Source: Candidatus Beckwithbacteria bacterium (lineage in GTDB: Bacteria; Patescibacteriota; Microgenomatia; UBA1400; UBA1449). From it: a DNA stretch of 64,000 nucleotides. The stretch lies in assembly GCA_012797845.1 (NCBI GenBank), contig JAAZOH010000016.1, positions 7,733-71,732 of the forward strand. The letters run 5' to 3'. The notes beneath the pieces were generated by a model. The model made no database searches, was not told the DNA's origin, and was given only the letters and a program-made list of their open reading frames with translations. Both the position numbers and the translations under genes were made by a program. Of this stretch, positions 35,962 through 58,248 are shown piece after piece. Position 1 is the first letter of the stretch, and the number at the start of each line of letters is the position of its first letter.

Positions 35962-35966
35962 TATTT

Positions 35967-37353: not shown

Positions 37354-37385
37354 AAAAACCCGGCTTTGCCGGGTTTTTTGTTGCG
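37354..37385 (+). terminator. Rho-independent terminator AAAAACCCGGC-TTTG-GCCGGGTTTTTTG
   Basis: Perfect 6-bp GC stem (CCCGGC/GCCGGG) with T6 tail, immediately after pilin paralogue 6. Confidence 0.75.
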
Positions 37386-37418
37386 TTAATATAACTATCA
37401 TGAGAAAATAGTGAATAT

Positions 37419-40900: not shown

Positions 40901-41292
40901 TGACTAGAATTAATGCTAATGGCTATTGGAGTTCTGATGAATTTACTAAGAATTTTGATATGGTTTACGATTCTGCGATAGCAGCTGGCTGGAATCCTGC
41001 GTTCGTAGTTGCTCTATGGATCGAGGAATCAGGAGGTTCAGCAGTTACTGCTTGGGATTTAGGATGCAAATATGGCAAAACTAGTACTGGTAGCATGTTA
41101 ATGCCTAAAAATAATATTGCCCTACAGCTTGAATGTTTATTTGAAAAAGACTATGCTACTTTGCCTTGGGAAGAATTTGCACTCACTTATGCCGAAGGTG
41201 CCAGAGAAGGTCGGCAGGATCCGGACAAATTTTGTAATAATCCTAATTTTCCAGGAGGGATTATCAGCGTCTATGAAGCACTAGTTAAATAG
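37903..41292 (+). CDS. Large (1129 aa) Cys-rich secreted/surface protein; C-terminal ~150 aa have a lytic-transglycosylase-like Glu motif (VVALWIEESGGSAVTAWDLG)
   Basis: N-terminal signal/anchor (LLVILFFIAILLTYLQIIYPQLARA), more than 25 Cys in the CxxC/C-x-C spacing typical of extracellular domains. The C-terminal motif is only suggestive. Confidence 0.5.
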   Translation: MLPFHKLLVFNPCLHPSRKLLVILFFIAILLTYLQIIYPQLARAIDPNVDFFNTHEFTQVTNASLSLYDHPGTSEGHPLDSQAPQLTGLLEGNTSPSVTSVYQTTPITGVDYDSSWANNRLPGVGATVAGFSSQSGQSVQVPPSGYDIGEGRTATILYYDNNSVTINYGNVGEFQTGYTIHISGIQANSELLASYQQAVAEGKLLAVSAFQELGTALSSEVLVAIRDTGALMDPRWLGDWWQYVYDPLDPLNPKLLDPTKPPLPKLDNQCTVGDSLPPDGILRPNPCQNCTLLVPDPTNSCATQPVLQKTGTWGCGEQAYRCEGENDEGGLDHDGDYVFLKDWAAVFKINTKNTTKVPFAGYRNIEKKDERSTNLNNYLRDYFEGTLLYDRIDEKNPISFSNAEDIRNLNLEAGVFRKLAPTYVQDELRKAMIKKRYNYEITNCQQGPNKDTCADGKSTRYYKTMNEWLAKAKPWPDGYYPPTSPDYQECNTITEYWAVFNCVNQADQTYANAYKNWSDTPWGLLWSYIPLFTREDAPGSVTLTIEHKPGELETAGVGSNKGKYAAEFPMAFPHLAGLYEASLNLNKLLLPTMLQDKIASNNSSSSLVSKPSQNILLAQAQTLDDTIGSEMYLAQASSDNTTEPVPETWYQTSTGLRPNEDGTTSWFFDLTKNNNFADEGSYDMVHMEFFVYVNGEQVAAYHDSPSVEQGLHYSEHIPDSIQLTPGEQLEVSVFINNGAQAINAIKEDIVGKTFISNCTVQTDGSIACDGVLMKIPEPQQTNCRKNGSSIDKNCSGNDPISDYNPNDEVCCNATAKATIEDYKIFVSEGTYKGACVCPASNPDCDLDGGGSELMTRQVEVRLKIPYLEKIYALTTGSEAGVFNIFRPQNFSEYPDNDALSGITYELVSGDGVSIVPDSGNLYYPYLGGIQETKKCLSEQFLVPRELQNGQEQCGFWSWNRYLGSTSALDLLTKGCTSMEGTIDYRNSTGFNKESIRANGLTRINANGYWSSDEFTKNFDMVYDSAIAAGWNPAFVVALWIEESGGSAVTAWDLGCKYGKTSTGSMLMPKNNIALQLECLFEKDYATLPWEEFALTYAEGAREGRQDPDKFCNNPNFPGGIISVYEALVK

Positions 41293-43320: not shown

Positions 43321-46275
43321 TTATTTATCTGCAGGTTTATTAAGTACTGAAACTTTAAACCATTTACGCAAGAAGTCAATCAGACCAAGTCCCAATTCAA
43401 AATTTCCTTCAAATCTGATATGTCGCAAGTATTTTCCTTCATTCGGCAACATGCCAATATCATTATTGTCCAAGATTTTATCTATCAAAGGTAGGACTCT
43501 TTGTTCAAATTCTTCAGCATTAGCTACCATACCGTCTTTTTCAAAAGCTTTAGCCATGGTCTCAAAATAACGACCACCCACCACCCGAGCCCCGTGATAT
43601 TGCCTACCAGGACAATAGCCTCTGTCTCCATTTTCATCCACATAATTCTTGGGGATATATTTAATCTTCCTAATTGGAGTATTGCTTGGACCAATAATAA
43701 GGTTTCCATCTTTATTGTCATTAACTCTAACTTCTCGATATCCATAACGTTTTTGCAAAACCTCCCACCGTTTTTTAGCAGCTTCAAGCGCCTGCTCTTC
43801 GCTTAAATTAGGGTCTCTTTCTCTATTTATCTCTACAAGTTCTTTAAGAAAATCTTCTTTACTATAATGTTGTTCGACAAAATTCCCACCTTCTCTTTTC
43901 AAATCTGCCACCCAACATTCTGTTCGTATTCCCATCTGGTAGGCTTGAGCAATCATTTCTTCTTGAGCAAATTCTTCCATCCATTTATTGTTTCTAAAAC
44001 CCATTACCCCTTTAGCTTTCAGCTCTCCTGTAGCTTGACTGGTTTTTTTGGCTGCATTTTCAATAACAGCCAGTTTGAGATCTTTCTCACTTTCAATCTT
44101 TCCGGTTAAACCCTCATTATCCATAACTTGGTTATGATAGCCATTAACTACCTCGTATGAATCATTTGCTGCTGCTGTGTAACTAGCATGAGATTCTAGG
44201 ACTTTGTGTTGAAGGGACTCATTCCAGGCTAAAGAATCAAAAAATAGCAGATGTCTTTGCTGCAATTGTTTTATCTGCCTTAAACCTTCAAAGCCTTTGG
44301 TTCTATTGGCATCAAATACTACTGTTTCTTCAATTCGTTGTAACTTGGCAAAAGCTGGGCCAAAGTCAATATGGGCTATAGCGTCTTTTTCATCCTGCGT
44401 CCAGGATTCAAAACCAGCAATTACTTCCTGAAGTGATTTAAAATCTGCACGTTGGACAAAATTGCTTTCATTACCTTTTACTATTACTTTTCCATGCTCA
44501 TCTTTCTTTGTTCTGCGAAGAATTAACCACTTATCTGCTAATTCTTCCCAGTTATCTTCACTAAAATCTAAACTAGTTCCATTTCCTCGCCATTGAGTTG
44601 ATTCACCTTTTACTCCTGATTTGCCATCTTTCCCCATTCCAAAAGCAATCAAACTTTCTATTTCTTCTAAGTGGGGCATAATACCTTGGCGGGTTAATTT
44701 TTGTAGAAGCACTTCTTTTGCACTTGGTTTACCCCGTCTCGCAGCTTCTTTATCAGCTGCCTTATATGCTTCTGTTTCCCAGTTAATATAAGTCATCTCA
44801 GGCAACATCATCGCTCCGGAAGCTCCTTCGCTAGACATTGGTCCCCAACCAATCAATCTTTGCACTCGACGTAGCATCTCTGGCGAATTCTTATAAACCC
44901 GTTCAAATCCCGCTGGAATCACACCTTTTCTAGAAGCTGAATAGGTCTCTCGAGCTCCCATTAAGGGATCGTGTCGATAGTTTTCAAACTGGATATTCCA
45001 TAAATTCCAAGCAGATTCATATACTCCCCAAAGTGCCCCTGTCATTAATCCTCTTAGGTCCTGGCGTTTTTCAGGCGCCAACTCTTTAACTGAAATTCTT
45101 TTACCAAAACCAAAGTCGTACAAATTGGTATCAATGATAACCGCATCCTTAGGTAGACCTTCTCCTTGATCATTTACTAATCGATGTTCAAACAAATCGT
45201 CAAAAATTGCTGCTCTGACTTTATTGTAACCGATATCCTTAGGATGACCATTTTCATCAAGCAGTGAACCTTTCCAATTTTCACCCGGACTTTCAGTCAA
45301 GATCCTATAGGCTGTGTCCGGGTCATCAAGTAAATCTTTATAGTGGTCAATTCTGATAGTGCCTCGATATGTTTGTTCCCGACCATTCCTATCTACAGCT
45401 GTAACCTCTACCTCAGGTGCTATCTCATGCAAACCTTCAAAAAGCTTAATGCCAGGATTACCTAAAATTGAAGACATCGCTTTGATATCTTTTTGGGTCA
45501 TTGCTTGTCCAGCTTTTCGGATAAAATCACCTGCCAACCACATTGAGCCCTGTTCTGAGCTCAGTTGGTTGGAGCTTAGGATCATCTGTAAGGCTTGATG
45601 CTCGATATGAGAACCTGATTTTAAAACTTCCAGATGTAGCAGGGATAAAACTTGCCCAATTCGTTTTTGTTGTTTTGTCGGATCTATAGTTCCATCTGGA
45701 TTCCTAGGATTGGGCAAATAATCACTTAATGCTTTATCAAGTTCATCGTATTTTTCTTGTAGTTCACCTGTGACAGCTTTTAGTTGGTCAAGTCGCATTT
45801 TTTTCCACAAATCAGTCTGAAACCCTCCCATACCATTCTCCCCATTACCTAGTTCAATTAATTTTTGAAGCTGTTCTAAACTTTGCGCTTGTCGCATTTG
45901 CTCTGTTTCTTCTTCGCTAAGATTGATTGTTCCTTCTTCTCGTTCCAACTCTGTAAGTCTTTTTTCAATTGCTCGAATAGCTGGTTTATTTTCTACTCCT
46001 TCTACATTGATTAGTTTTAAATTGAGAGCAACTGCTAATTGAAAAATGATTAAACGACGACGTAATTCTTTTTGTGGAGTGTGTTCTTGAACTAAAAACT
46101 GATAATACATATCAGCTTGCATTTGTTCATCTCTGTTTAAAATAGTATTTTCTTCTTCTTGTTGATTTTGGCGTAGTTCATTTTGGGGATTACGTTCCTG
46201 GTCCTGATCACGACGTGGACGCCGTTCTCGTCTGTTTCTTCTTTGGTTGCGTTCATTTTCTGGATCTGAAGGCAT
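43321..46275 (-). CDS. 984-aa soluble protein of unknown function with an Arg-rich basic N-terminus (RRNRRERRPRRD) and long coiled-coil segments
   Basis: Long uninterrupted ORF; no catalytic motif recognised by eye. Confidence 0.45.
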   Translation of the reverse strand: MPSDPENERNQRRNRRERRPRRDQDQERNPQNELRQNQQEEENTILNRDEQMQADMYYQFLVQEHTPQKELRRRLIIFQLAVALNLKLINVEGVENKPAIRAIEKRLTELEREEGTINLSEEETEQMRQAQSLEQLQKLIELGNGENGMGGFQTDLWKKMRLDQLKAVTGELQEKYDELDKALSDYLPNPRNPDGTIDPTKQQKRIGQVLSLLHLEVLKSGSHIEHQALQMILSSNQLSSEQGSMWLAGDFIRKAGQAMTQKDIKAMSSILGNPGIKLFEGLHEIAPEVEVTAVDRNGREQTYRGTIRIDHYKDLLDDPDTAYRILTESPGENWKGSLLDENGHPKDIGYNKVRAAIFDDLFEHRLVNDQGEGLPKDAVIIDTNLYDFGFGKRISVKELAPEKRQDLRGLMTGALWGVYESAWNLWNIQFENYRHDPLMGARETYSASRKGVIPAGFERVYKNSPEMLRRVQRLIGWGPMSSEGASGAMMLPEMTYINWETEAYKAADKEAARRGKPSAKEVLLQKLTRQGIMPHLEEIESLIAFGMGKDGKSGVKGESTQWRGNGTSLDFSEDNWEELADKWLILRRTKKDEHGKVIVKGNESNFVQRADFKSLQEVIAGFESWTQDEKDAIAHIDFGPAFAKLQRIEETVVFDANRTKGFEGLRQIKQLQQRHLLFFDSLAWNESLQHKVLESHASYTAAANDSYEVVNGYHNQVMDNEGLTGKIESEKDLKLAVIENAAKKTSQATGELKAKGVMGFRNNKWMEEFAQEEMIAQAYQMGIRTECWVADLKREGGNFVEQHYSKEDFLKELVEINRERDPNLSEEQALEAAKKRWEVLQKRYGYREVRVNDNKDGNLIIGPSNTPIRKIKYIPKNYVDENGDRGYCPGRQYHGARVVGGRYFETMAKAFEKDGMVANAEEFEQRVLPLIDKILDNNDIGMLPNEGKYLRHIRFEGNFELGLGLIDFLRKWFKVSVLNKPADK

Positions 46276-46479: not shown

Positions 46480-47835
46480 TTGATTAAAAATCAAAGCATT
46501 ATTAGGGAGGCAGCCGGAACCCTGTTATCTGAGGCTCCATTTTACAGGCGAGCTACCTGTAGAAGCCGTACCGCATTGTCATTTGCCATTGAGCAGTCTC
46601 CAACAATTACTCAAGAAAAAATACGTATCCCTCCTGAATTGATCATTGGCTTATTTCCAAGATTTTCTTCTGATCAACTACTAACACAAGATCGGCGTGA
46701 CCCATTTTTAACTCCAGAGCTTGTAGCTTATTTTAATCAAAGTCGCAATCAATTTGTGATAGAGCAAGATATTGGTCAAACCAGTTTAGAACAGGAAGCA
46801 CAGCTGGTGGCTCAGTTACGAGAACATGTTTTAGGTCAACCATTACTTACCAAGTGTACGATCTGTTTTCGAGATAACCAGCTTTTTTTTAATAACCATG
46901 CTGAATCTTTTGTTCACCAAACACTCACCAGCATTCATCCAAATAGTATTTTCAAAAGAATAGAGCCGTACTGGCTACGAAAATTTGGCTATATCCCTAC
47001 TAGTCAACAATTGGAATTCGTTACTAGCAATCCTGATATATTCAGAAGCTTAATATCTGATGATGTATATTATCAAACTAAACTAGGGCTTGAATGGGCT
47101 GAGTTTACCGGTATTTTAAGACTACAGCAACAGTTGGCCACTATTGGAGATGGTCAACGGATTGTTGAGTTTAGTCCTGGCTCAGCCAAACTAAGACCTA
47201 CTCCAATTATTCATCATTGGGTCCGAATATATGAAAAACAAGGAGAACAAATTATAGCAACCTATGTTCGCAGTGATGTTTCCGATGAGGAATTTATCAA
47301 AGCATATGTTCAATTTGCTCAACCAAATCCCATATATACAACGGTTCAGGATATTGTCAGTCACCCGATTGTAACTACTGCTAATCCTGAACAAATCTTA
47401 GCAGCTCTTCATATCAATCAAGACTCCCAATTTTTAGAGCTGTATGATCGGGCCTTGGCTGACCTTAAAGTTCAAACTACCTTACGGACAACATTAGAAT
47501 TGATGAAGCAAAAAGTTGGCCTTCCTCAGATTATTAGCTCCAAAGCTCAGCTTGAACAAGAAGTACTTAAAACCTTTAATAAATTATTCAGACAATACCT
47601 TGAAGAGCATGGCTCTTCTACAACCGAACTAAAGAATAATTTTATTAAGAGTGCTTTAAAATTTTTAGGTCGTGGTGGTGGCTGTGGTCTGGCTGGGCTC
47701 TTAGAATCATTTGTGCCTGGTTTCCCTTGTCCTCGCTGTGGGGGTTGGATTAAAATGGGCAGTGGCGATGCTTGCCCTAGCTGCGGCTATACTAAAAATG
47801 AACACGCAGCAGTTAGTGGGGAGAGGTGCGGGTAA
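46480..47835 (+). CDS. 451-aa protein of unknown function with C-terminal double CxxC zinc-ribbon (CPRCG...CPSCG)
   Basis: ORF begins with TTG. C-terminal GGGCGLAGLLESFVPGFPCPRCGGWIKMGSGDACPSCGY. Confidence 0.45.
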   Translation: MIKNQSIIREAAGTLLSEAPFYRRATCRSRTALSFAIEQSPTITQEKIRIPPELIIGLFPRFSSDQLLTQDRRDPFLTPELVAYFNQSRNQFVIEQDIGQTSLEQEAQLVAQLREHVLGQPLLTKCTICFRDNQLFFNNHAESFVHQTLTSIHPNSIFKRIEPYWLRKFGYIPTSQQLEFVTSNPDIFRSLISDDVYYQTKLGLEWAEFTGILRLQQQLATIGDGQRIVEFSPGSAKLRPTPIIHHWVRIYEKQGEQIIATYVRSDVSDEEFIKAYVQFAQPNPIYTTVQDIVSHPIVTTANPEQILAALHINQDSQFLELYDRALADLKVQTTLRTTLELMKQKVGLPQIISSKAQLEQEVLKTFNKLFRQYLEEHGSSTTELKNNFIKSALKFLGRGGGCGLAGLLESFVPGFPCPRCGGWIKMGSGDACPSCGYTKNEHAAVSGERCG

Positions 47836-47895: not shown

Positions 47896-50800
47896 TTAAC
47901 TTTTTTCATTCTTATAGTCTATTAAATCTCTTTTTAATTTTTCAATGTCTGTAATTTTTACTTCTCTAACTAACATATTATCAGAGTTTCTTCTTTCAAT
48001 AACTGTAAAATTTATTCCTAGAAAATTATTCAATATTCTTTTAACAATTGGAGAGTCGGGTGTATAACCATACACTCCTATAATAGCATTAATATCATCT
48101 TCTAAATGTTCAATACTAAGAGAATCTACATCTTCTGACAAAAGATTTTCAGTAGCTAACCAATTAATATCTCTAATATTATCCCTCGATGCAAAATCAC
48201 TCCATTGATGTACAATGGCAGAATTGCGTCTTCTTCTATCTCGATCTGGATCGGCACCATTATAAGAAGTATAGTAACTCAAACCTCTTCTTGGATTTGT
48301 TATTATCGAAGCTCCTCCAATATATCCTATAGGATAAGTTTTATTTGTGAGTGTTCCATCTGCTTTTTTTCTAGCCTCTTTGATCATATTGCCTAATTCT
48401 ACATCCTGAGCCACATCTGTTTCGGTATTATAACCACCCACAGCAGCATAAATAGAAGATTTTATGGCAAAATTAGCACCAGAAGAACCAACTATTTTTC
48501 TCTGTTTATCATGTCTGGCTACAGCTTCAAGAAATTGATAAAAACGATTAGCAACATGAAAACCGGGGTATTTGATATAAGCTTCTGGATTCCATTCAAT
48601 TTTTCCAAGAGCTCCATCTTGATGTTTTTTAGATGGGTTGTCAAAATTATTAATAATTGAACTAACATAGCTCCTAGAAATAAGTTCTGCATCCGCATCA
48701 TTTGCAACTAATAGGAGATCATTATTTAATGGGTTATCCCGTTTTTGCGAACGTAATAATGCCATGTCTGATACATATTTAGAAATAACCCCCATATTAG
48801 GCCTTTTTTCTGGAAATATTTTCTCGATTACTCTAATTTTTACCTCTGGATGATCTCTTTTGAATCTTTCTACTTCATCCTTAGTTTTGTCTGGAGTAGA
48901 ACTTGACGGTCTATTTAAAAATAATATTATTTCAAAATCATTAGGATTTAATTCATCCCCAGCTAGATCTGTTTGATCTGCATATTGAAGAAGAGTATTA
49001 TATATGTTTTCCCCTTCTTGATGCGAGGCTGCAGCAATACAAATAGCCACTCTACACGAATTACTCATTGGTTCATTTATTGCCGAATCCATATTATTAA
49101 GCTCTTCCAGATAACTTCTTTCTTGTTGTCTAAAATACCATCCTATTTCTTGGTTGGGATTCAGGATAATTTCTGGATTCCTACTTAACCTAGGAGAACG
49201 TCTTGATTTATAAAAATCCTTTCTTTCTTGACTAACTTCATAACCTTGATAATAAATTAACAAGTCTTTTCTCAGCAAATCTTCTAGTGGATATCTCCAT
49301 TCTAATGGTGTCGGGATAAGTGGAGCAGATTCAAAAGGTGGAGTTAGTTCAAATGCAGTTGGCAGTTTGGCTTCCAAATTAAATACTTCTTGAACTGCTG
49401 ATTCACCATGAGGTATCGCAGTCAAAATGGTTTCACCTGGAGTTTCTGCTGTAGTTCTGATAGTTTCCAATCCCTTACCAACTACGGTTGATAAAATTGT
49501 TCTCCTCCCATCAGCTTGACGGTGGGCAATTTCCAAAAAAGCTGCTTCTAAAGAAACTTTATTATCAACTACTTTAATAAGTTGACTTAGATCTGTTCCG
49601 GGAGGAACTATAAGATGGCCATCTGGAGACATTTGAGCTACTATCACTTCTTTGGCTCCTTTAAATGGAGTAAATAAAACTTCAAAATTTTGATAGATTC
49701 GACTCCCATCAGGCTTGGTGATAATATCCCCAGCCAATCGCGCGTATTCTGGATCAATTGAGCTATCCCAATTTAGTCCTCCTTCGGGTACTAAATTAGA
49801 TACCATTTTGGACATATCCACCTCTGCTGAACCATCTTTAAGAGCATGAAAGTAGGTTAAGAGTTCTTTACCATCTGCTCCAACCAATTTTCCTGCTTCG
49901 TTATAGTGCATTGGAGTATTATTGAAATGCCATAATAATTTTTTAGCTTTATCAATAGTTTGTCCAAGTCCTCTAAAATGGTCTAAAACTGGAGCATCTT
50001 TACTTACAATCTGACCTGATCCCGGAGTTTGATCCAAGTGAGTAGTAAAATCAACTCGATCTAATACCTGATGGGCTTGTCCAAGATCAATACCTGGATT
50101 ATCTTTTGGCAAAAAAGTAAGGGATCCATCACCAGCAATAGTCCCATGAAGAGAAATCCGTGGACCGTGCCAAGCTGTTCCTGGTTGAATAATAACATCA
50201 TGACCATTAACGGTCATAGTTAGCCCTGCTTTCATTCCTTCTGCTGAACCAAAAGTTTTAGTACCTCCAGCTGTAACTACTTCTTTGACTTTTTCTAAAA
50301 GCGATGGAGTATTTACAGTAGTTTTTTCAATCACTCCTACTCCAAAACCACGATTTTTCAAAATATCATGAAGAGAAGAAAGCTTTGATTGATCTCCAGT
50401 AAACTGCAGGGATTCACCTGTTAGTTTACTTACGCCAATATTATCACCACTGTAGGCATCGGCTACAAAAACCTGCTGCCCATGGTTGAGATCAAGATTG
50501 AGCCGTAAACCTTCATGTTCAAAAACCGTAGACTGACCCTGAGCCGCAGCTTCCCGAACTTGTTCTTGAAGTGAATGAGAGACTGTTTCAGTTTTACCCC
50601 AACTACCAATAATATCTTTGACGGAGACCGGTAAATTTTCTGGATTACCGGAAATGATCAGCTTGCCATTTGGTTGTGAAAATATTTTTGGTAAACCAGT
50701 CAAAGGTTGATTGGTAGTAGTATCAACTAAAGTGAGTGAGTGATCAGGGTTTATCAGTGCTTTGACATGTTCACCAAAGTTCATTTCTCCACCACTACCA

Positions 50801-53253
50801 CTTTGTTGATATAACTCAGCTAAACTAGCAATATTAGGTCCTTGGGGCCGATCACCAATATGTAACCAGCTTTCTACTGCCGTTTGACCTGTTCCACCAA
50901 GATGAATACCAGCACTATCCAAACCTCTAGCAGCTAAAGCAATTCCCTCCTGAGAGAGAATACCACCAACTAAAGCTGTAGCTCCTCCAAATGCTCCAGC
51001 TTTAACCGCTTGCCCAAGTCGATAGCTATTGAAAGCTTTATCTTTTTCTTCCTTAGTTTCTGAATATCTTTGCATCAGTTCTTGTTCTGCTATATCCAGC
51101 TCTCTAGTAATTTGAGCTGTAGCTTCAGCTCTTTTTTGTTCAAGAGTTTTATTGGGATCGATATCTTGAGCTATACGCGCTTCAATCAATTGTTGTTTAG
51201 CTTCAACTACCACTTTAACCAGTTCAAGTCGCTGTGAAGCTGTTGAGTAGCGACCAACTTCTGGAGTATTAGTATCAAAAGAAATTAAATCAGTTTTAGT
51301 TTCAATGCCAAAGTTGATCCTGGCATTAATTTCAGCAGCTTTTTTAAGCAGAGCCTCTCGATGTTCTTGCTCACTTAAATCTTGACTAATTAAAGCATCC
51401 ATTTGACCTAATAAGCCTTTAGCAGTAACCCGAACCTTATCCTCATCAAGCATATTACTAAATTCATTAAGCCTATCTCTTCGAGGAGTAGGTGTGTCTC
51501 CAGGGTAAAATCCAGCTGCGCTTTCTAGTTCTTGCATTTCTCTGTCGTTTTTAAGATCGGTCCAACGCCGTAATCCAGCAAACACTGCTCCAGTTGTAGC
51601 TCCTATAGCCAGTCCAATTCCAGGTACTTTAGCTGCCAAACCTGAAGCGCTACTACCTGCTCTTAATACTGAACGCACCCCACCACTAGCTAATCCTGAT
51701 ATAACTCCAATTGCTAAAGGATTAGCTAGCCAACCTCTAAATTTACCTGACTTAGTCCAATTCATGTAGCGTTCAATTTTACTAAAGTCAGCATCAGTAC
51801 TTGTTGCCATAAAAGCTCGACCAAATTGAATAGTCAACATATCATCAAGTCGACCTAAAACATCATGACCAGCTTCTTGCCATCCCTTGACTTCCTCAGC
51901 TATGTCTTTAATATTGGCCGCTATAAAATCAGAGTTTTTAACATAATCAGGAATATCATCTATAGCTTTAATACTTTCAACTAGTTCTTCAACTTTTTGA
52001 TCAAGTTCTTCAGGTCTAATGTTTCCTTGAGCATATTCAGAAATCAAGCCTTGTATACCTTGTTGGACTTCATTACTTAGATTAACTTCTGCCGTTTCTC
52101 CAGAAAAAGTTTTTACCTCATCTCTTCCTATCATCCCAAATCGTTCTAATGTAGACCGAGACTGAGTTTCAGCCAACCTTTTACCTTGATTAATTTCTCT
52201 AGCTGCCCCAGTCACATCATCAAGTTCTAAAAATTGATGGCCAGCTGTAATTTGAGCTGCCATTAATTCTTGAGTTTTTTTAGTTACAAAATAACGCTCA
52301 AATAATTTGAATCTGATATTGGGTATTGATTTAAGAGCAGCTAAAGGCATTTCATACCACTTTTTAGCTCTTTCGCCCCGCATTTTGTTATGTGTCCAGC
52401 GTAGCGCTGCTTCATAAGCTTGGCGTTTAGCATCATGACTGGTATCAACCAGAGACACTACTAATTTTTCCGGAGGAACAACTGGTTCAGTTACTGTTGG
52501 TGGAACTGGAATGGTTACGGCAGCAGAATCATCTTCATCTCCATTTTCTTCTGGTTCATCTGAATCTCTGCTCGACTCAGGTGGCTCTACAACAATGGGA
52601 GATTCTGGATCTGGGTTATCAGATCTAACTGGTCTTGGTTCAGTTGGAGGATACACCATCCAACGGGAAAGTAAAATTTTATGAGCTTCTATTTTACTTG
52701 GACCAGTAAAATTACCATCTAAACCTCTTTCTACTACTCCCATAGGATCATTAAGTTCCTCCATTTCTTCCAGTTCTTTGACTGCCCGTGCTTCAATTAA
52801 GCTATGTTGCCATGCTTCAGGTAAACTTCCATAACTTTTAAGTTGTTTTTTACCACCACTTGTTAAAGTTCGATAAATCGTATGTAGCCATTCCAATCTT
52901 TCTGGGTTTGGAGTTGCTTTTATCGACTCTCTTTGAATTTCGTTTAAAGTAGTTAATAAAATTTGAGTAACTTGAATTCCTTCGTTATATCGCTTTTTTC
53001 TACCATCATTAGTTTGAACTTCAATCCGCACACCACTAGTTCTTCTTTGTTTAAGCTGCTCACCTCTTTTTTTATTCAATGCTATTTCATATTTAACTTC
53101 ACTAGTCTGTTCACTTGTTGGTAGCTCTTCCAATAATTGTCTACCTTTCTCCAACGCCCAAAAGACTTCTTCTCTTGTAGGCTGATACTCTTGATTACTT
53201 TCAACAGCTCGATTGATTTCAGCATGCTGGTTAGGAGATAAGATTTCAACCAT
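47896..53253 (-). CDS. Giant (1785 aa) multidomain protein with Gly/Ala-rich hydrophobic segments, long coiled coils, and a C-terminal GT-A fold glycosyltransferase-like domain with DxD motif
   Basis: The C-terminal 390 aa read CRVAICIAAASHQEGENIYNTLLQYADQ...FEIILFLNRP ... LLLVANDADAELI ... AAVGGYNTETDVAQDVELG. This is the GT-A/GT2 pattern (Rossmann beta1, DxD, second acidic motif). Mid-protein segments GVISGLASGGVRSVLRAGSSASGLAAKVPGIGLAIGATTGAVFAGL and AGAFGGATALVGGILSQEGIALAARGL are glycine-zipper-like. Confidence 0.6.
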   Translation of the reverse strand: MVEILSPNQHAEINRAVESNQEYQPTREEVFWALEKGRQLLEELPTSEQTSEVKYEIALNKKRGEQLKQRRTSGVRIEVQTNDGRKKRYNEGIQVTQILLTTLNEIQRESIKATPNPERLEWLHTIYRTLTSGGKKQLKSYGSLPEAWQHSLIEARAVKELEEMEELNDPMGVVERGLDGNFTGPSKIEAHKILLSRWMVYPPTEPRPVRSDNPDPESPIVVEPPESSRDSDEPEENGDEDDSAAVTIPVPPTVTEPVVPPEKLVVSLVDTSHDAKRQAYEAALRWTHNKMRGERAKKWYEMPLAALKSIPNIRFKLFERYFVTKKTQELMAAQITAGHQFLELDDVTGAAREINQGKRLAETQSRSTLERFGMIGRDEVKTFSGETAEVNLSNEVQQGIQGLISEYAQGNIRPEELDQKVEELVESIKAIDDIPDYVKNSDFIAANIKDIAEEVKGWQEAGHDVLGRLDDMLTIQFGRAFMATSTDADFSKIERYMNWTKSGKFRGWLANPLAIGVISGLASGGVRSVLRAGSSASGLAAKVPGIGLAIGATTGAVFAGLRRWTDLKNDREMQELESAAGFYPGDTPTPRRDRLNEFSNMLDEDKVRVTAKGLLGQMDALISQDLSEQEHREALLKKAAEINARINFGIETKTDLISFDTNTPEVGRYSTASQRLELVKVVVEAKQQLIEARIAQDIDPNKTLEQKRAEATAQITRELDIAEQELMQRYSETKEEKDKAFNSYRLGQAVKAGAFGGATALVGGILSQEGIALAARGLDSAGIHLGGTGQTAVESWLHIGDRPQGPNIASLAELYQQSGSGGEMNFGEHVKALINPDHSLTLVDTTTNQPLTGLPKIFSQPNGKLIISGNPENLPVSVKDIIGSWGKTETVSHSLQEQVREAAAQGQSTVFEHEGLRLNLDLNHGQQVFVADAYSGDNIGVSKLTGESLQFTGDQSKLSSLHDILKNRGFGVGVIEKTTVNTPSLLEKVKEVVTAGGTKTFGSAEGMKAGLTMTVNGHDVIIQPGTAWHGPRISLHGTIAGDGSLTFLPKDNPGIDLGQAHQVLDRVDFTTHLDQTPGSGQIVSKDAPVLDHFRGLGQTIDKAKKLLWHFNNTPMHYNEAGKLVGADGKELLTYFHALKDGSAEVDMSKMVSNLVPEGGLNWDSSIDPEYARLAGDIITKPDGSRIYQNFEVLFTPFKGAKEVIVAQMSPDGHLIVPPGTDLSQLIKVVDNKVSLEAAFLEIAHRQADGRRTILSTVVGKGLETIRTTAETPGETILTAIPHGESAVQEVFNLEAKLPTAFELTPPFESAPLIPTPLEWRYPLEDLLRKDLLIYYQGYEVSQERKDFYKSRRSPRLSRNPEIILNPNQEIGWYFRQQERSYLEELNNMDSAINEPMSNSCRVAICIAAASHQEGENIYNTLLQYADQTDLAGDELNPNDFEIILFLNRPSSSTPDKTKDEVERFKRDHPEVKIRVIEKIFPEKRPNMGVISKYVSDMALLRSQKRDNPLNNDLLLVANDADAELISRSYVSSIINNFDNPSKKHQDGALGKIEWNPEAYIKYPGFHVANRFYQFLEAVARHDKQRKIVGSSGANFAIKSSIYAAVGGYNTETDVAQDVELGNMIKEARKKADGTLTNKTYPIGYIGGASIITNPRRGLSYYTSYNGADPDRDRRRRNSAIVHQWSDFASRDNIRDINWLATENLLSEDVDSLSIEHLEDDINAIIGVYGYTPDSPIVKRILNNFLGINFTVIERRNSDNMLVREVKITDIEKLKRDLIDYKNEKS
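47899..49065 (-). other. GT-A (DxD) glycosyltransferase-like domain at the C-terminus of the 1785-aa protein
   Basis: Motifs listed above; coordinates approximate (last ~388 codons). Confidence 0.45.
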
Positions 53254-53256: not shown

Positions 53257-53667
53257 TTAGTTTGCTGAAGAATTTTGTGACATAGACTGAGGCTCAGATT
53301 TTGTTTCTTGGATATCACTTAAAAAGAAATTGCGAAAATCCATAAAACTCTGGGCAAATACCTCTTTAGCATTGGGGATTTTTTCAGTGATAAACTGTTC
53401 CATTTCCTGTTTACCTTTACCGGATTGAACTAGTTCAATAAATTGATCAACTTGCTCTGGCTGCATGTTTTCGATAGCATCAGCTATGATTTTTTTCTCA
53501 AGTCTGGCATATAAATCTCCAATCATGGCAGCTTTAAGATCATCAGTCAAAACCATACCCGCATCCTCGAGTAATTGATTAAGAAAAGCCTCAATATCTG
53601 ATGGGATTTGTTCTACAGGTGAACTAGCTTGGGTATGACTAGTATTTTGATCGTTAGTATCATTCAT
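53257..53667 (-). CDS. Small acidic protein (136 aa) immediately upstream of and translationally adjacent to the 1785-aa gene; chaperone/adaptor candidate
   Basis: A 3-nt gap to the giant gene and acidic composition. Function is inferred only from size, charge and position. Confidence 0.4.
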   Translation of the reverse strand: MNDTNDQNTSHTQASSPVEQIPSDIEAFLNQLLEDAGMVLTDDLKAAMIGDLYARLEKKIIADAIENMQPEQVDQFIELVQSGKGKQEMEQFITEKIPNAKEVFAQSFMDFRNFFLSDIQETKSEPQSMSQNSSAN

Positions 53668-53715
53668 AAAAAGCCTCCTTTATACTAGAATAGTATAAAG
53701 ATAAAAATAAAGTCA

Positions 53716-54459
53716 ATGACTTCTGTTATCAAAATTATTTCCAGTATATTGCAAAACATTGGTTTGATATCAATGTATTGGTTAGTGTTTTTATGTCTTA
53801 TACAACTATTACTTTTATATCTACTCACAAGATATTATTTAGGAAGTTTATACCGATTTTTTTTATTAATTACTAAGTCATCGAATTGGGCTATGAGGTT
53901 TTCAGCTGTTTTTTTATTACCAGGTACTGTTATCCACGAACTATCTCACTATTTAGTAGCAGAAATTCTTCAAGTTCGTACAGGAAACATTAATTTATAT
54001 CCTGCTAAAAATGAGGAGGGTAAATTACGCCTTGGCAGTGTAGCTATTGCTCAAACCGATCCATTTCGGAAAATTTTAATTGGTACTGCGCCATTATGGA
54101 CAGGCTTGGGTATAATAGCTGCTCTAATATATATCATTGTAGATAAAATACCGCCACTTTTTTTCTTGATTCTGATTTTCACTGCTATTTTTTTAATTGC
54201 TAGTACTATGTTCTCTTCCAAAAAAGATCTGACCGATATGTTTGTCCCTACTTTTTTACTTTTTATTATTTGGCTGTTTTTATACCTGACTAAAACTGCT
54301 TTACCTGAAGCAGTTATCACTTTTTTTTCTCATATACTCATTAGCCTCAACTTAGGCTTATTGGTTACGCTTGCCATTTATCTTATATTTTTATGTTTGC
54401 TTTATATGGCAACTCGTTTATTCAGTCTGATTTTAAAAAGAAAAATTATTACCAAATAA
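53716..54459 (+). CDS. Polytopic membrane protein with HExxH zinc-binding motif (HELSHYLVAE); putative membrane metallopeptidase (DUF3267-like)
   Basis: HExxH embedded after the second TM helix; 5-6 TM helices. Confidence 0.45.
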   Translation: MTSVIKIISSILQNIGLISMYWLVFLCLIQLLLLYLLTRYYLGSLYRFFLLITKSSNWAMRFSAVFLLPGTVIHELSHYLVAEILQVRTGNINLYPAKNEEGKLRLGSVAIAQTDPFRKILIGTAPLWTGLGIIAALIYIIVDKIPPLFFLILIFTAIFLIASTMFSSKKDLTDMFVPTFLLFIIWLFLYLTKTALPEAVITFFSHILISLNLGLLVTLAIYLIFLCLLYMATRLFSLILKRKIITK

Positions 54460-54505: not shown

Positions 54506-57241
54506 ATGGTAGACTCTTCTCCACAATTGCAATTACGTGATCAGGCTCAAGCTCGAGCTTTAATTACCCTACTACTCTCTGATCAGAAAGAACCTTTTAC
54601 TATCAATACTCAGCCGTATTCTAGACAGCAATGCTTAGAGGCTTTGCAGGCATATTTAACATCAACCTTAGAAAGACAATGGACTATAGATCAACTTGAT
54701 AATGCCACTGAACTTTCAAAGATTGAAGCCGAATTAGAGGCTTCTTATGAAGAAGAAATTGAAGCTCCAAGTCTGCCTCAAAATTTACAAGAATTGATTC
54801 ATTTTCAAAAAGAAGCAGCTGAACGCAGACAAACTTTGGCAGCCCATAAAGATCTTGACTTAGCTCACATCTCAGTTAAACAAAATGTGGCTTTAGCTCA
54901 AAAATATCGAGAACTACTCGAAAAAGCTAAAGCTTTTAGTCAGGATTCCAGTAATTTAAAAACTGAGGTTGAAACACAAACGATTCAAGAGCGATTGGGC
55001 CGTCAATCAGAAATTGGTAAAGAACTACAAGACAGTTCACTTGCCTATGGTACGCAAATTGCCTTAGAAGAAATCGGTGAACAACTAGTTCGATCAACTG
55101 ATCCAAAGCAAGCCACCATAAATGATCAAGCTGTAAGTTCCAAAATAGCCCTAGATCCTAGAATGGGAACACAAGCAACTAATCCGGTTTTGTATCAAGA
55201 AATACGCAAAACTATTAATCGGCTCAATGAAAACCCTCAACAAAAAAAGCAATTTAGAGATGCCTATATACTTCATAAAGCGGCTCTAGCTGCTACCACC
55301 CCAACCTATACTCAGCTTATCGATGTGTTTGAAGGCGAGGGCCATATGTCAAGAGCTCAAGCTCGACATGCTATGAGTTATTTTACGACTCTAATTGAAA
55401 GTGGTGTGGTCTATAATCAAGCTTTTTTTGAAGCCGGTGAGAGAGCCAGTTCTGGTTTTCAAAGACTAGTTTCGCAAAAATATTACCGTAACCCTAGTTT
55501 ATACAGCCATCTCTTTAGAGGTTTAGAGCAATATCAGCAATACCGCCCAGGCGTACGTAACAATCAAGGTATTATCAATTCTCAAACTGAGCTAACTAGT
55601 CAAGTTGGCAAAGGTGAAAGTACTATCACTTTAGATCAGCTCACAGAAATGATTAATAGGGGATTAGCTCCAGGAGAAGAAGTTTCTCCCACCCAAGTTT
55701 TAGTCCATTTTATGGGTGGCCAAGATGTATTTTATGCAAGTAGTCAAACATTGATTGACAGCCTAGATTCTAATGAAGAACAAAAGAAGCTTCGTTCTTT
55801 CTTATTAGATCAGCAAACTGACTTTACCAATAGTTCTCATAGAATTAGCCAATCAATTACTCATCAAGGTGGTTTTATATCTCAATTTTCTTCCAGTTTC
55901 AAACCGGTCGAACGCCATCAATTTTCGGCTTTTTCACTACTCACTGTTACTGCTTCCAGTATGGCTACAACTGGTTTTGCTTTTGCTACCCACACTGATA
56001 CCAGCAGTTTTAATCTTTTTAGAAATACTAATAATTTTTTAAACAACTCTTTATCTGGTAGATTAGTCAACTATGGCATGGGTAAGGTAGGTGAATGGGC
56101 TCTTGGAGCCGCAGCTTCCACTGGTCTTAAAAAAACTTTTGGTAAGTTAGCAGTTGGTGGCTTAACTAAATTGGCAGGAGCTTTGGGAGTTAATATCATA
56201 CCAGTTGTTGGTCAAGCTGTGTCCGCAGTCATGCTAGCCAAACAAATAGTCGACATTGCCGAACAGCTTCCGGTTGTAGGAAAGGCAGTAGGTTTCGGAA
56301 AGAGATTTTGGTGGGTCTTACCTGCAACTTTACTAGCTGGATTAATTGCTCTTATTGCTAAATTACTCAACTTAATTCTTTCTATTGCTGGGACTGTTGG
56401 ACCTCCAATGCTTATTTTAGGATTAGCAACTGCTAATCCTCTTTTAATAATTCCTGGTCTTGCTTTGACTGTGATTGGTCACTGGCCTACTATTAGTAAG
56501 TTTTTTAGTAATCTTTTTCAGGGTGCTAATAATCTTGGTACTAAGGTTTTAAATCTCTTTGGGGCAGGGGCTTCTGAAGCTGCTAGTGGCGGCATGTTCC
56601 CTGCTTTTGTTCATGCCCCGCTTATAGCTGTGGGGGCAGTTGGTATAACCACAACTTTTTTGTATATCAACCTTATTTCAGCATTTCGATTACCTCCATT
56701 TGATACATTACAAGATGTCTATAATAAAATTGATAATTTAACCCAGTTTGAGCCAGGTATGCCTGAATGTTGGCCAGTTAGCGGGTATGTCACCCAAGGT
56801 ATGAATACTGGAGATAGCCATACTGGAGTGGTGCTTAATTCTATCGATATTGGCGGTAACGATGGAGCAGATGTTCACGCAACTCACAATGGAGTAGTAG
56901 TAGAAGCCGGATGGAATAGTACTGGCTATGGAAAACTGGTTCGGATTGAGGGTACAACTGGAGGACTTCCTTTTACAACCTATTATGCTCATCTTGAAAC
57001 TATCACTGTAAACGAAGGAGCTACAGTTAAAAAAGGCCAAGTTATCGGCACAGTTGATAGTACCGGTAATTCTGAAGGCCCACATTTACATTATGAATTG
57101 CGAGGTTTGGGTTCAATAGCGGATACTATTTTACTGTCCGGATGCATCGATGAAGCAAGTGCTGATAGAATTGAAAACGGAAAGTGTATTGGCCAAGCAA
57201 GCTGTAATTTTACTATTAGTCAAATTGTCCAACCAGAATGA
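54506..57241 (+). CDS. 911-aa protein: N-terminal coiled-coil region, central hydrophobic segments, C-terminal M23 (LytM/lysostaphin-type) peptidase domain
   Basis: M23 signature HTGVVLNSIDIGG (HxxxD) ... YYAHLE ... GPHLHYELR (HxH) in the last ~160 aa. Confidence 0.7.
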   Translation: MVDSSPQLQLRDQAQARALITLLLSDQKEPFTINTQPYSRQQCLEALQAYLTSTLERQWTIDQLDNATELSKIEAELEASYEEEIEAPSLPQNLQELIHFQKEAAERRQTLAAHKDLDLAHISVKQNVALAQKYRELLEKAKAFSQDSSNLKTEVETQTIQERLGRQSEIGKELQDSSLAYGTQIALEEIGEQLVRSTDPKQATINDQAVSSKIALDPRMGTQATNPVLYQEIRKTINRLNENPQQKKQFRDAYILHKAALAATTPTYTQLIDVFEGEGHMSRAQARHAMSYFTTLIESGVVYNQAFFEAGERASSGFQRLVSQKYYRNPSLYSHLFRGLEQYQQYRPGVRNNQGIINSQTELTSQVGKGESTITLDQLTEMINRGLAPGEEVSPTQVLVHFMGGQDVFYASSQTLIDSLDSNEEQKKLRSFLLDQQTDFTNSSHRISQSITHQGGFISQFSSSFKPVERHQFSAFSLLTVTASSMATTGFAFATHTDTSSFNLFRNTNNFLNNSLSGRLVNYGMGKVGEWALGAAASTGLKKTFGKLAVGGLTKLAGALGVNIIPVVGQAVSAVMLAKQIVDIAEQLPVVGKAVGFGKRFWWVLPATLLAGLIALIAKLLNLILSIAGTVGPPMLILGLATANPLLIIPGLALTVIGHWPTISKFFSNLFQGANNLGTKVLNLFGAGASEAASGGMFPAFVHAPLIAVGAVGITTTFLYINLISAFRLPPFDTLQDVYNKIDNLTQFEPGMPECWPVSGYVTQGMNTGDSHTGVVLNSIDIGGNDGADVHATHNGVVVEAGWNSTGYGKLVRIEGTTGGLPFTTYYAHLETITVNEGATVKKGQVIGTVDSTGNSEGPHLHYELRGLGSIADTILLSGCIDEASADRIENGKCIGQASCNFTISQIVQPE
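56758..57238 (+). other. M23 peptidase domain
   Basis: HxxxD and HxH zinc-ligand motifs with the conserved spacing. Confidence 0.65.
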
Positions 57242-58248
57242 AAAAAAAATATATCTTTATACTTATAATAGCTCTTGTAATTATAGTTATTGTTGGGATT
57301 ATATTAGCTTGGCAAAAACAAACTAATCAAATTGCAGTTAATACCCTTCCTAAACCTTCAGTTAAACCTACTACCACTCAACTTAATCTTACATATCAAT
57401 ATGTAGGTGAACTGCCAACATTTAACAAGCAAATTACAATTTACAGTACTGGGAAAGACGAAGCATTTTCATCACAGGAAATTCAGGAATATGGTCAAAA
57501 ATTTGGTTTTACCAACAGTTCAAAGCAGTTACAAGATATTTCTGGTATTGTGTATTCTTTCAAACAAAATGATTTGTCATTGAGCATATTTTCAAACCCA
57601 CCTTCATTATCATACCGTAATTTTACTTCTCCAGGTTCAAACAAGCTTAGTCAAAAAGATTTGGTTGCTAAAGCCCAGGAGTTCTTGGATACCGCTCAAA
57701 TAATAGGTAAACAGGTTATGTTAAGCACTCCCTATTTACAACCAATTGCTGGTAGTCAAACTGGAGAAGGTCTTTTAAAAACAACGATGGATCAAGCTAG
57801 TTATGTAGAAATAAACTATAATTTAGTTCTTGATAAGCTGCCAATTATCCCTAAAGACCGTCAAAGTTATCCAATTACATTGCTACTCAATTTGGATGGA
57901 AGTATTCGCAAGGCTAGTCTAACAATTTTTACTAAAGAACTTTCTTCTCTTGGTAAAGTCACACCTGCAGAACCAGCAGCTGCCCTTCAGGCTATTAATG
58001 CTGGTGGTGGTTTACTAAGTAAATTTAGCAACCCCAACCAAGCTTATACTGAAATTGATAGCAATATGATTTCTACAGCTACTCTTAGGTCGTTGGAATT
58101 GGTTTATTTGTATGATTATGATACAAATACTCTCCAACCCTACTATCGTTTTTCCGGAACTGCAAATACCACAAGTGCTGAATTGATTGAAATTGAAGTG
58201 TTAATTACTGCCTTACCACAGGAGGTCTTTCAACAAGAAAACAATTAG
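57238..58248 (+). CDS. Bitopic membrane protein (336 aa), unknown function; start overlaps upstream stop (ATGA)
   Basis: N-terminal TM (IFILIIALVIIVIVGIILAW) followed by a Ser/Thr/Asn-rich extracytoplasmic domain. Confidence 0.45.
   Translation: MKKKYIFILIIALVIIVIVGIILAWQKQTNQIAVNTLPKPSVKPTTTQLNLTYQYVGELPTFNKQITIYSTGKDEAFSSQEIQEYGQKFGFTNSSKQLQDISGIVYSFKQNDLSLSIFSNPPSLSYRNFTSPGSNKLSQKDLVAKAQEFLDTAQIIGKQVMLSTPYLQPIAGSQTGEGLLKTTMDQASYVEINYNLVLDKLPIIPKDRQSYPITLLLNLDGSIRKASLTIFTKELSSLGKVTPAEPAAALQAINAGGGLLSKFSNPNQAYTEIDSNMISTATLRSLELVYLYDYDTNTLQPYYRFSGTANTTSAELIEIEVLITALPQEVFQQENN

Follow-up and report, generated by a model that had tools for sequence, protein, structure and literature searches.

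A giant protein of Candidatus Beckwithbacteria with a divergent GT2-like glycosyltransferase domain and a recurrent DUF5663 partner

What does an ultra-small bacterium of the CPR/Patescibacteria do with a 1785-residue protein that ends in a glycosyltransferase (GT) domain? The question is raised by a 64-kb window of Candidatus Beckwithbacteria DNA (the whole stretch analysed). A large part of bacterial diversity belongs to the CPR/Patescibacteria, whose lineage-specific genes mostly lack an assigned function. The first-pass annotation proposed a translocated glycosylating effector or toxin placed inside a secretion-like locus. An open reading frame check finds the gene as annotated, at 47896..53253 on the minus strand with an ATG start, and its 1785-aa product is identical to the NCBI entry ‘hypothetical protein GYA49_02420’ of Candidatus Beckwithbacteria bacterium. 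The window is chromosomal, carrying pnp, ftsK, rnj, infB, nusA, and mevalonate-pathway genes.

The giant protein lacks a signal peptide and opens with an acidic, proline-rich extension (residues 1-254, 52492..53253 on the minus strand, as for all segments below) that contains 9% Pro, bears a net charge of -15, and is missing in the shorter homologs P0004-P0006. Behind it, a profile search of family representatives delimits a conserved N-module of ~520 aa (residues 255-800, 50854..52491). Composition and homolog comparison then define a variable G/S/T/N-rich spacer (residues 801-1344, 49222..50853), whose length differs greatly among homologs and in which domain searches recognised no domain. 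The last segment is a GT-A, GT2-like domain with a small C-terminal alpha/beta subdomain (residues 1345-1765, 47959..49221). When the whole protein and three pieces of it were scanned, residues 1-1344 held no Pfam or NCBIfam domain; profile searches of Pfam and PDB gave no relative of the N-module, and the full-length protein had no phmmer match among PDB sequences.

The C-terminal domain can be assigned by its structure. An AlphaFold2 model built on a 16-sequence alignment reached a pLDDT of 85.3 and a pTM of 0.85 (a 3-sequence alignment gave a pLDDT of 47.8), and all 33 of its Foldseek matches in the PDB at E<=1e-3 are GT-A enzymes, the best being the GT2 enzyme PcManGT (E 1.6e-8). By structure comparison the domain is a Rossmann-like alpha/beta/alpha sandwich with a central mixed beta-sheet. 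The GT-A assignment of the first-pass annotation is thereby upheld, and the four motifs that it quoted are all present and canonically placed in the model. VAICIAAASH (residues 1402-1411) contains beta1 (1402-1409), FEIILFLNRP (1440-1449) is beta2, VANDADAEL (1516-1524) covers the end of beta4 (1514-1519) and then D1519-A-D1521, and TETDVAQDVELG (1610-1621) reaches the N-terminus of helix 1616-1627, which bears D1617. The DxD motif (48691..48699), located by alignment and model and putatively binding metal and nucleotide sugar, directly follows strand 1514-1519, at the C-terminal end of beta4. The opposite outcome, a domain with no GT-A match or a DxD lying in disorder, is contradicted by this canonical layout.

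The active site is strongly conserved. Across 145 homologous segments, D1519, D1521, D1617, and N1447 are each 100% conserved, as the earlier annotation had asked of the DxD, E1413 and R1655/R1656 are 99% conserved, and the middle position of the DxD (A1520 in the window protein) is 97% conserved. D1617 (48403..48405), placed by alignment and model in an (E/Q)D family motif, is preceded by E in 87% of homologs and by Q in the window protein. It is a candidate catalytic base: it sits at a helix N-terminus, the position of the base in GT2 enzymes, and we infer that it is the equivalent of the GT2 base, to which it aligns in a non-significant HMM sub-alignment. Residues ~1345-1765 thus constitute a GT-A glycosyltransferase domain that is GT2-like but divergent and keeps all of its active-site residues (E1413, N1447, D1519-x-D1521, D1617, and R1655-R1656). 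Judged from sequence and model, the domain would be active, metal-dependent, and nucleotide-sugar-using; it is probably inverting, since it is GT2-like, and probably not processive, as its alignment contains no QxxRW motif. A pseudo-enzyme reading was dropped because the catalytic residues are 99-100% conserved.

The closest structures are PcManGT (PDB 6YV7), the Escherichia coli K4 chondroitin polymerase K4CP (2Z86), GlfT2 (4FIX), TarP (6H1J), and SpsA (1H7L). Other fold neighbours include hyaluronan, chitin, and cellulose synthases and TarS, which are GT2-type, mostly inverting enzymes of envelope, polysaccharide, or teichoic-acid synthesis. The giant's domain shares with GT2 enzymes the order beta1, beta2, beta3, beta4-DxD and, further on, an acidic (E/Q)D motif, but it is 10-19% identical to any of them and adds N-terminal helices as well as the C-terminal alpha/beta subdomain. 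Where GT2 enzymes have an Asp at the end of beta2, the giant family has an invariant Asn (N1447, in an N-x-P motif). Its setting differs too: it closes a protein of 1785 aa that has a novel N-module and a DUF5663 partner. A profile search against PDB sequences again placed PcManGT on top, in register from beta1 to beta3 although with a weak E-value of 0.063. The window protein falls below all Pfam and NCBIfam thresholds and has no match to the Pfam GT2 models PF00535, PF13641, and PF13632 even at E<=10. Among 24 diverse homologs, by contrast, 10 match PF00535 (best E-value 1.4e-6), eight match PF13632 (2.8e-5), and six match PF13641 (1.1e-8). The relation to GT2 therefore rests on intermediates and structure rather than on a direct model match.

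Glycosylating toxins offer a second comparison. TcdA/TcdB (GT44), Lgt1-3 (GT88), and SetA also pair a GT-A fold and its DxD with a large multidomain protein containing hydrophobic segments, and the Legionella glycosylating effectors associate with a type IV secretion system (T4SS). However, they are not among the fold neighbours of the giant's domain: Lgt1 appears only at a Foldseek E-value of ~0.1, and TcdA/B are absent from the matches listed. The toxins are retaining enzymes, and the GT domain of the large clostridial toxins is N-terminal, whereas that of the giant is C-terminal and GT2-like. Pfam and NCBIfam scans detected none of the toxin delivery modules (cysteine protease, CROP, and others) in the giant protein, and its linkage to T4SS genes is not conserved.

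Upstream of the spacer, the two glycine-zipper-like hydrophobic regions of the first-pass annotation were recovered as Gly/Ala-rich stretches with [GAS]xxx[GAS] motifs. One is a double, hairpin-like segment (residues 508-562, 51568..51732) with Kyte-Doolittle maxima of 1.39 and 1.58; the other, found by hydrophobicity and alignment, contains a conserved Q-E (residues 749-776, 50926..51009). Both are moderate, with 19-residue maxima of 1.3-1.6. The gap of ~200-240 aa between first and second segments is kept across the family, and in the window protein residues 566-745 are highly charged (42% EKRQD). The long coiled coils that had also been claimed went unconfirmed in a crude, weak heptad scan, in which one window reached the threshold while shuffled sequences averaged 3.5. 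A two-helix hairpin at residues 508-562 combined with a single span at 749-776 would put the GT domain on the outside of the cell, away from any nucleotide sugar. Helices as weak as these (Kyte-Doolittle 1.2-1.6) may also fail to anchor the protein in a membrane. A signal peptide is lacking in 126 of 128 giants, none of the giants examined has a hydrophobic segment downstream of the GT domain, and all 16 stand-alone forms shorter than 600 aa are devoid of any hydrophobic segment.

Word-index homolog searches were insensitive for this protein, returning 2, 4, and 11 matches, and it was an exhaustive profile search (E<=1e-3) that exposed a GT-domain family of at least 1312 clusters at 50% identity. 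Organism labels are CPR/Patescibacteria wherever the source names one, and the titled loci span several CPR classes; of two metagenome scans, one gave no locus and the other a single short one. Nothing was found in the literature on DUF5663 and the giant GT family. With the window protein as jackhmmer query, the N-module was found in 115 of 153 family representatives, nearly full length in 109. The shared architecture consists of an optional N-extension, the N-module (~520 aa, containing three Gly/Ala-rich helices of weak hydrophobicity), a variable spacer, and the GT domain, and the window protein displays the corresponding series of double hydrophobic segment, second segment ~200-240 aa on, spacer, and GT. 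A polymorphic-toxin architecture was considered and dropped, as the N-module and GT are constant while the middle varies, and the partner gene lies upstream rather than being a downstream immunity gene.

Some members of the family carry extra C-terminal enzymes, namely a second GT, a PknB/StkP-like Ser/Thr kinase, or a PP2C phosphatase. A Hanks kinase is fused behind the GT in 21 of the 153 members, and the best PDB relatives of these kinases are the bacterial cytoplasmic PknB (Staphylococcus aureus) and StkP (Streptococcus pneumoniae). One member has both kinase and PP2C phosphatase, the usual endogenous regulatory pair. The fusions recall the PknB/PstP and StkP/PhpP systems of monoderm bacteria, and both groups are membrane-associated multidomain proteins (by prediction for the giants). 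In PknB and StkP, however, an N-terminal kinase precedes one transmembrane helix and extracellular PASTA domains, whereas the kinase of the giant family is C-terminal, behind the GT, and the window protein itself has no kinase. The GT domain also exists in soluble stand-alone paralogs.

The giant gene has a constant companion. Directly upstream on the same strand, separated by a 3-nt gap (junction TAA-GAT-ATG), lies a DUF5663 gene (53257..53667, minus strand; Pfam PF18908, 8.9e-7) encoding a small, acidic, helical protein of 136 aa. It is preceded by a Shine-Dalgarno sequence, AAGGAGG (53680-53674), and a sigma-70-like promoter match (53716-53687), which together occupy 53674..53716 on the minus strand and are consensus matches only. 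No comparable ribosome-binding site precedes the giant ORF, which suggests a single operon; as far as the sequence tells, the giant is apparently co-transcribed with DUF5663 and translationally coupled to it. DUF5663 adjoins the giant in 18 of 20 independent loci (the window and 17 of the 19 others) and is the only neighbour that recurs across them. Exceptions to the upstream position are locus L014, where it is directly downstream, L020, where it is absent, and L011 and L018, whose contigs have no upstream sequence. A DUF5663 profile search of the PDB gave one weak match, the chaperone trigger factor (E 0.019), which serves as a lead only.

The placement ‘inside a secretion-like locus’ holds only loosely. 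The giant gene has a T4CP-like ATPase and an M23 peptidase less than 5 kb away and five VirB2-like pilin genes (PF18895) at 10 kb. These pilins belong to a separate transcription unit, however, the DUF5663-giant pair being a unit of its own between convergent and divergent genes, and no VirB4 was recognised within the 64-kb window. The window has counterparts of components described for an MPF-FATA-like T4SS of Patescibacteria (Quinonero-Coronel et al., 2025; PMC12102498): VirB2-like pilins, a homolog of T4CP, and an M23 peptidase that may be the analogue of VirB1. That work mentions no glycosyltransferase, giant protein, or DUF5663 component, and most giant-DUF5663 pairs lie at a distance from T4SS genes. 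Among the 20 independent loci, T4SS pilins or a T4CP occur within 10 kb in four (the window, L012, L014, and L015), leaving 16 with no T4SS gene at that distance. Pilins adjoin the pair in the window, L012, and L015; in L014, a Saccharibacteria contig representing a second CPR class, an ortholog of the T4CP-like ATPase (8e-133) is directly beside it. The four loci, from at least two CPR classes, exceed a chance expectation roughly estimated at a few per cent.

Elsewhere the pair keeps housekeeping company. Two Saccharibacteria-like genomes preserve the order infB-DUF5663-giant-x-DUF5663-fmt-def-priA, with giants that are 44% identical. There the giant and DUF5663 outpace every housekeeping gene around them in divergence (40-46% against 57-80% identity), a pattern more typical of surface or host-interaction proteins.

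Taken together, sequence and model lead us to read the giant as an inverting glycosyltransferase that is tethered to the membrane, faces the cytoplasm, and acts together with DUF5663 inside the producing cell itself. Such a protein would be a conserved, lineage-specific cell-biology module rather than a toxin, and we give this reading about an even chance. The GT domain would transfer a sugar from a nucleotide sugar, the use of which implies that it works in a cytoplasm, most likely that of the bacterium itself. Hairpin or monotopic helices of the N-module would keep the enzyme on the inner membrane face, with DUF5663 as a stoichiometric partner, whether chaperone, adaptor, or acceptor. Other candidate acceptors are a protein, a glycopolymer of the envelope, and a polyprenyl-phosphate carrier that would feed the GT-C (PMT_2) enzymes of the genome. 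A cytoplasmic location is suggested by the near-universal absence of signal peptides, by stand-alone forms without hydrophobic segments, and by the fusions to an ATP-dependent kinase and PP2C. The 1312 clusters, the housekeeping synteny, the recurrence of DUF5663, and the absence of phage relatives argue for a core rather than an accessory gene.

In the effector alternative of the first-pass annotation, here adapted to a bacterial host, the giant would be exported without a Sec signal, possibly via the T4SS/T4CP, with DUF5663 as chaperone or adaptor, helices that enter a host membrane, and C-terminal enzymes that modify host targets. This is unlikely but retains a minor share of the probability. 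A missing signal peptide, hydrophobic helices of moderate strength, and a modular enzymatic ‘payload’ behind a conserved N-module would suit an effector, as would the small acidic partner directly upstream with its trace of trigger factor similarity, the fast evolution of both proteins, and the pilin or T4CP genes beside four of the loci. Yet nothing specific supports a translocated toxin: the fold neighbours are GT2 envelope and biosynthetic enzymes instead of GT44, GT88, or other toxin-type ones, most loci are remote from T4SS genes, and in the window the pair is transcribed on its own with no VirB4 recognised. Soluble paralogs, kinases nearest to bacterial PknB/StkP with an opposing PP2C in one member, and conserved housekeeping synteny also speak against it. 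A broader version, in which the pair delivers cytoplasm-acting enzymes into a host bacterium throughout the CPR, appears somewhat more doubtful. DUF5663 would again be chaperone or adaptor, the Gly-zipper helices of the N-module would insert, and the payload (GT with or without kinase and PP2C) would modify host proteins or envelope precursors, possibly via a relaxase-less CPR T4SS/T4CP. If true, the episymbiotic lifestyle would be supported by a glycosylating effector passed from bacterium to bacterium.

Were the spacer and GT-like domain outside the cell, the GT-A fold could instead serve as a carbohydrate-binding or non-canonical host-recognition module of an adhesin-like protein. The odd number (three) of hydrophobic segments before the spacer and the highly variable, G/S/T/N-rich, fast-evolving spacer fit such a role, and giant membrane proteins thought to mediate host attachment have been reported in CPR bacteria (PMC8080830). 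It is nevertheless very improbable, given that a catalytic set (DxD, D1617, RR) conserved at 99-100% argues for catalysis requiring metal and NDP-sugar, that relatives carry an ATP-dependent kinase and PP2C behind the GT, that stand-alone homologs have no export signal, and that Pfam scans of eight full-length giant homologs detected neither an adhesin-type nor any other envelope domain. Membership of a phage or mobile element, for instance as a tape-measure-like or conjugation protein with an enzymatic domain, is effectively refuted. The long, charged, probably helical regions and Gly-rich hydrophobic segments superficially recall tape-measure proteins, and pilin, M23 peptidase, and T4CP-like genes are nearby. 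Phage origin is rejected because a PHROGs scan gave no match; pattern searches of 2.9 million viral contigs found no relative, and both the chromosomal window and the synteny in other genomes are at odds with a mobile element.

What had been a hypothetical protein is now a defined family with a fixed architecture, an intact active site, and a DUF5663 partner. If the enzyme acts in the CPR cell, as under the own-cell reading preferred here, it would belong to an unrecognised pathway of envelope or protein glycosylation; if it acts in a host, it would represent a new class of inter-bacterial effector. Genetics and Tn-seq are available in a single CPR group, the Saccharibacteria (PMC12102498 and work cited there), and since they harbour members of the giant family, essentiality, localisation, and a DxD-dependent phenotype are directly testable. 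One further gene may or may not belong to the DUF5663-giant system. Divergent to the pair lies a gene for a polytopic membrane protein of 247 aa with a conserved HELxH motif (53716..54459, plus strand), which also adjoins the pair in the two closest relatives, L009 and L012.

The open reading frame at 47896-53253 (minus strand) begins with ATG and encodes a giant protein of 1785 aa, as the first-pass annotation had it; NCBI lists the identical protein as 'hypothetical protein GYA49_02420 [Candidatus Beckwithbacteria bacterium]'. It lies in chromosomal CPR/Patescibacteria DNA of ~38% GC, among genes that include pnp, ftsK, rnj, infB, nusA, mevalonate-pathway genes, and two GT-C (PMT_2) genes. 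Conservation and structure prediction together show that the giant ends in a predicted, intact GT2-like catalytic domain (residues 1345-1765) within a conserved multidomain protein.

Pfam and NCBIfam scans of the whole giant or of three pieces return no match, even at E<=10, and neither does phmmer against PDB sequences. A word-index homolog search with the last 404 aa finds only two relatives, whose alignment with the giant displays the GT2-like motifs CRVAxCIxA..QE, NRP, NDAD, GGYN, and (Q/E)DxE. Searching 1.84 billion cluster representatives exhaustively with a profile expands the family to 1312 proteins at E<=1e-3 (501 at E<=1e-30). Across 145 aligned domain segments, N1447, D1617, and both aspartates of the DxD (D1519 and D1521), the conservation of which the first-pass annotation had proposed to check, are 100% conserved; E1413, Q1427, R1655, and R1656 reach 99%. 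Among 24 mutually diverse members, ten match PF00535 (Glycos_transf_2; best 1.4e-6), eight PF13632, and six PF13641 (best 1.1e-8), while the window member matches none of the three. Against PDB sequences, the family profile ranks the GT2 mannosyltransferase PcManGT (6yv7) top at only E 0.063, in register across beta1-beta3.

AlphaFold2 modeled the domain poorly from a 3-sequence alignment (pLDDT 47.8), and 16 sequences yielded pLDDT 85.3 and pTM 0.85. The 33 PDB matches of the latter model at E<=1e-3 in Foldseek are all GT-A enzymes, headed by PcManGT (1.6e-8) and followed by chitin, hyaluronan, and cellulose synthases, K4CP, WrtF, and mannosylglycerate synthase. Modeled strands beta1 to beta4 span 1402-1409, 1440-1449, 1473-1480, and 1514-1519; D1519-A-D1521 directly follows beta4, and D1617 caps helix 1616-1627. 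The four motifs quoted at first pass are found at residues 1402-1411, 1440-1449, 1516-1524, and 1610-1621. The strand and DxD layout, the Foldseek matches, and active-site conservation therefore confirm the earlier assignment of a C-terminal GT-A domain; neither a lack of GT-A matches nor a DxD in disorder, named beforehand as counting against it, was found. GT2 enzymes are inverting. The invariant D1617, in its (E/Q)D motif, is placed where a GT2 catalytic base would be expected and presumably corresponds to it. The catalytic fold itself is ordinary.

The same annotation had read the giant as a translocated glycosylating toxin, which the comparisons do not support. In Foldseek, Legionella Lgt1 ranks 46-48 against the domain model, with E~0.1 at best. 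Closest to the domain are GT2 enzymes that act in envelope polysaccharide, teichoic-acid, or lipid-carrier glycosylation. No toxin family occurs among the 20 Pfam families matched at E<=1 by any of 24 scanned homologs, and Pfam and NCBIfam scans of residues 1-1344 reveal no recognizable delivery domain. Specific evidence for a toxin is thus absent.

Upstream of the catalytic domain, residues 255-800 form a homologous N-module present in 115 of 153 family representatives, with no Pfam or PDB relative in profile searches. It contains the two hydrophobic segments noticed at first pass, Gly/Ala-rich regions at 508-562 (a double segment) and 749-776, with Kyte-Doolittle (KD) maxima of only 1.3-1.6; the ~200-240 aa separating these clusters is a distance conserved in the family. 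The long coiled coils also described remain unconfirmed, since a crude heptad scan gave no enrichment. Signal peptides are wanting in the giants (a strongly hydrophobic segment within the first 40 residues in only 2/128), and after the GT domain a KD >= 1.6 segment occurs in 0/128 and a weak one (KD >= 1.2) in 8/128. Stand-alone forms below 600 aa (n=16) have zero hydrophobic segments. The spacer at 801-1344 is highly variable in length among homologs and holds no known domain in scanned giants.

The C-terminal end of family members is modular. In 21 of 153 representatives (P0085, P0114, and 19 others, none in the window), a Hanks-type Ser/Thr kinase, most similar in the PDB to bacterial PknB and StkP, follows ~100 aa after the GT domain; one such member, P0114, has a PP2C phosphatase in addition. 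Others, including P0011 and P0012, carry a tandem second GT domain, and locus L020 has two adjacent GT genes.

The giant's partner gene is a DUF5663 gene at 53257-53667 (minus strand; 136 aa; PF18908, 8.9e-7); a 3-nt gap separates its end from the giant's ATG. This TAA-GAT-ATG junction, with a strong AAGGAGG ahead of DUF5663 only, suggests that both genes form a single operon with translational coupling. Its neighbors are a convergently transcribed gene at 46480-47835 and a divergently transcribed one at 53716-54459, both on the plus strand. Twenty independent giant-homolog loci were compared: the window, those of P0004, P0005, and P0006, and 16 from GTDB. DUF5663 adjoins the giant in 18 of the 20, directly upstream in the window and 16 others and directly downstream in L014; L011 and L018 have neither DUF5663 nor upstream contig sequence, and DUF5663 is absent from L020. 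All-against-all comparison of neighboring ORFs found no other widely recurrent neighbor. The DUF5663 family has a conserved F-R-x-x-Y-L motif near its C-terminus, and its profile's best PDB matches, all weak, are the trigger factor C-terminal chaperone module from three species (E 0.019-0.48).

Two Saccharibacteria-like genomes conserve the order infB-DUF5663-giant-x-DUF5663-fmt-def-priA, in which the giant (44% identity) and DUF5663 (40-46%) are more diverged than every neighbor (57-80%). Stand-alone GT homologs occupy unrelated housekeeping contexts. No relative emerged from 2.9 million viral contigs with the patterns searched, nor any PHROG match, and the searchable literature yielded no description of the family. 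New here are a large GT2-like clade, CPR-labeled wherever the organism is named and overlooked by curated models in the case of this member, its constant fusion to an uncharacterized ~520-aa N-module, its DUF5663 partner, and its GT-kinase(-PP2C) variants, making the family a concrete, testable piece of CPR dark matter.

Secretion-like genes lie nearby. At 35143-37844 (plus strand) are five VirB2-like T4SS pilin paralogs in tandem (PF18895, E 1e-8 to 5e-7), and a 776-aa T4CP/VirD4-like ATPase (TrwB_AAD_bind, TraG-D_C; PF26449 DUF8128) lies at 58387-60717 (minus strand); no VirB4 was recognized in the window. Of the 20 loci, only three (the window, L012, and L015) have pilins adjacent to the giant, and an ortholog of the ATPase (8e-133) sits directly beside the pair only in L014, a Saccharibacteria contig (4797-7595), the only cross-class hint linking the pair to secretion. 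A study of CPR T4SSs mentions no glycosyltransferase, giant protein, or DUF5663 component (Quinonero-Coronel et al., 2025; PMC12102498).

We give roughly even odds to an enzyme that would draw on a nucleotide sugar in the cytoplasm of the bacterium itself, with the N-module holding it at the membrane and DUF5663 as a stoichiometric partner. Arguing for this are the soluble stand-alone paralogs without export signals, the fusion on the same side of ATP-/metal-dependent PknB-like kinase and PP2C domains, broad vertical conservation across CPR-labeled loci, and housekeeping synteny. Export into a host bacterium, the main rival, seems unlikely; it would fit the missing signal peptide, weakly hydrophobic helices, a small acidic partner upstream, fast evolution, and occasional T4SS/T4CP adjacency. 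Topology is the crux, as three single spans would place the GT domain outside the cell.

For the cytoplasmic enzyme, the acceptor could be a protein, as the kinase/PP2C fusions suggest, an envelope polymer, or polyprenyl phosphate, which could supply the window-encoded PMT_2 enzymes. Polyprenyl phosphate is compatible with the DPMS-like top match, which does not discriminate between acceptors. Genes for thiolase, HMG-CoA reductase, polyprenyl synthetase, and two PMT_2-type GT-C glycosyltransferases (29454-34740, 12807-14363, and 62670-63887, minus strand) imply polyprenyl-phosphate-sugar-dependent surface glycosylation in this genome.

The divergent gene at 53716-54459 encodes a 247-aa polytopic membrane protein with conserved LPGTxIHELxH (HExxH) and TMFSSKKD motifs and no Pfam or NCBIfam match. 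This protein is probably a zinc metalloprotease of the intramembrane type, and in L009 and L012, the two closest relatives, its gene again lies divergently beside the DUF5663-giant pair. A 911-aa M23 peptidase follows at 54506-57241. The convergent 451-aa protein (46480-47835), which matches no family and lacks homologs in all related loci, terminates in a zinc-ribbon-like, Cys-rich tail (CPRCGGWIKMGSGDACPSCGY). ORFs of 1129 aa (37903-41292) and 633 aa (41353-43254), on the plus strand after the pilins, 984 aa (43321-46275, minus strand), and 336 aa (57238-58248, plus strand) look like lineage-specific orphans, with no Pfam or NCBIfam match and no homolog in 19 related loci; PHROGs scans of the 984- and 1129-aa ORFs were empty.

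In three Saccharibacteria-type loci (L018 3360-3680, L019 5727-6026, and L021 4236-4589, minus strand), the giant gene is followed immediately by a convergent member of a family of short ORFs (100-187 aa), which L017 carries at another position; this could be a genuine short gene or an ORF-calling artefact. Contigs L011, L015, L022, and L023 carry a giant GT gene under the labels Planctomycetales, Gammaproteobacteria, and Babeliales, one Gammaproteobacteria-labeled case being a single 716-kb contig. DUF5663 is present in the last three as well, with PF18895-like pilins in L015; these four MAGs are probably mislabeled taxonomically.
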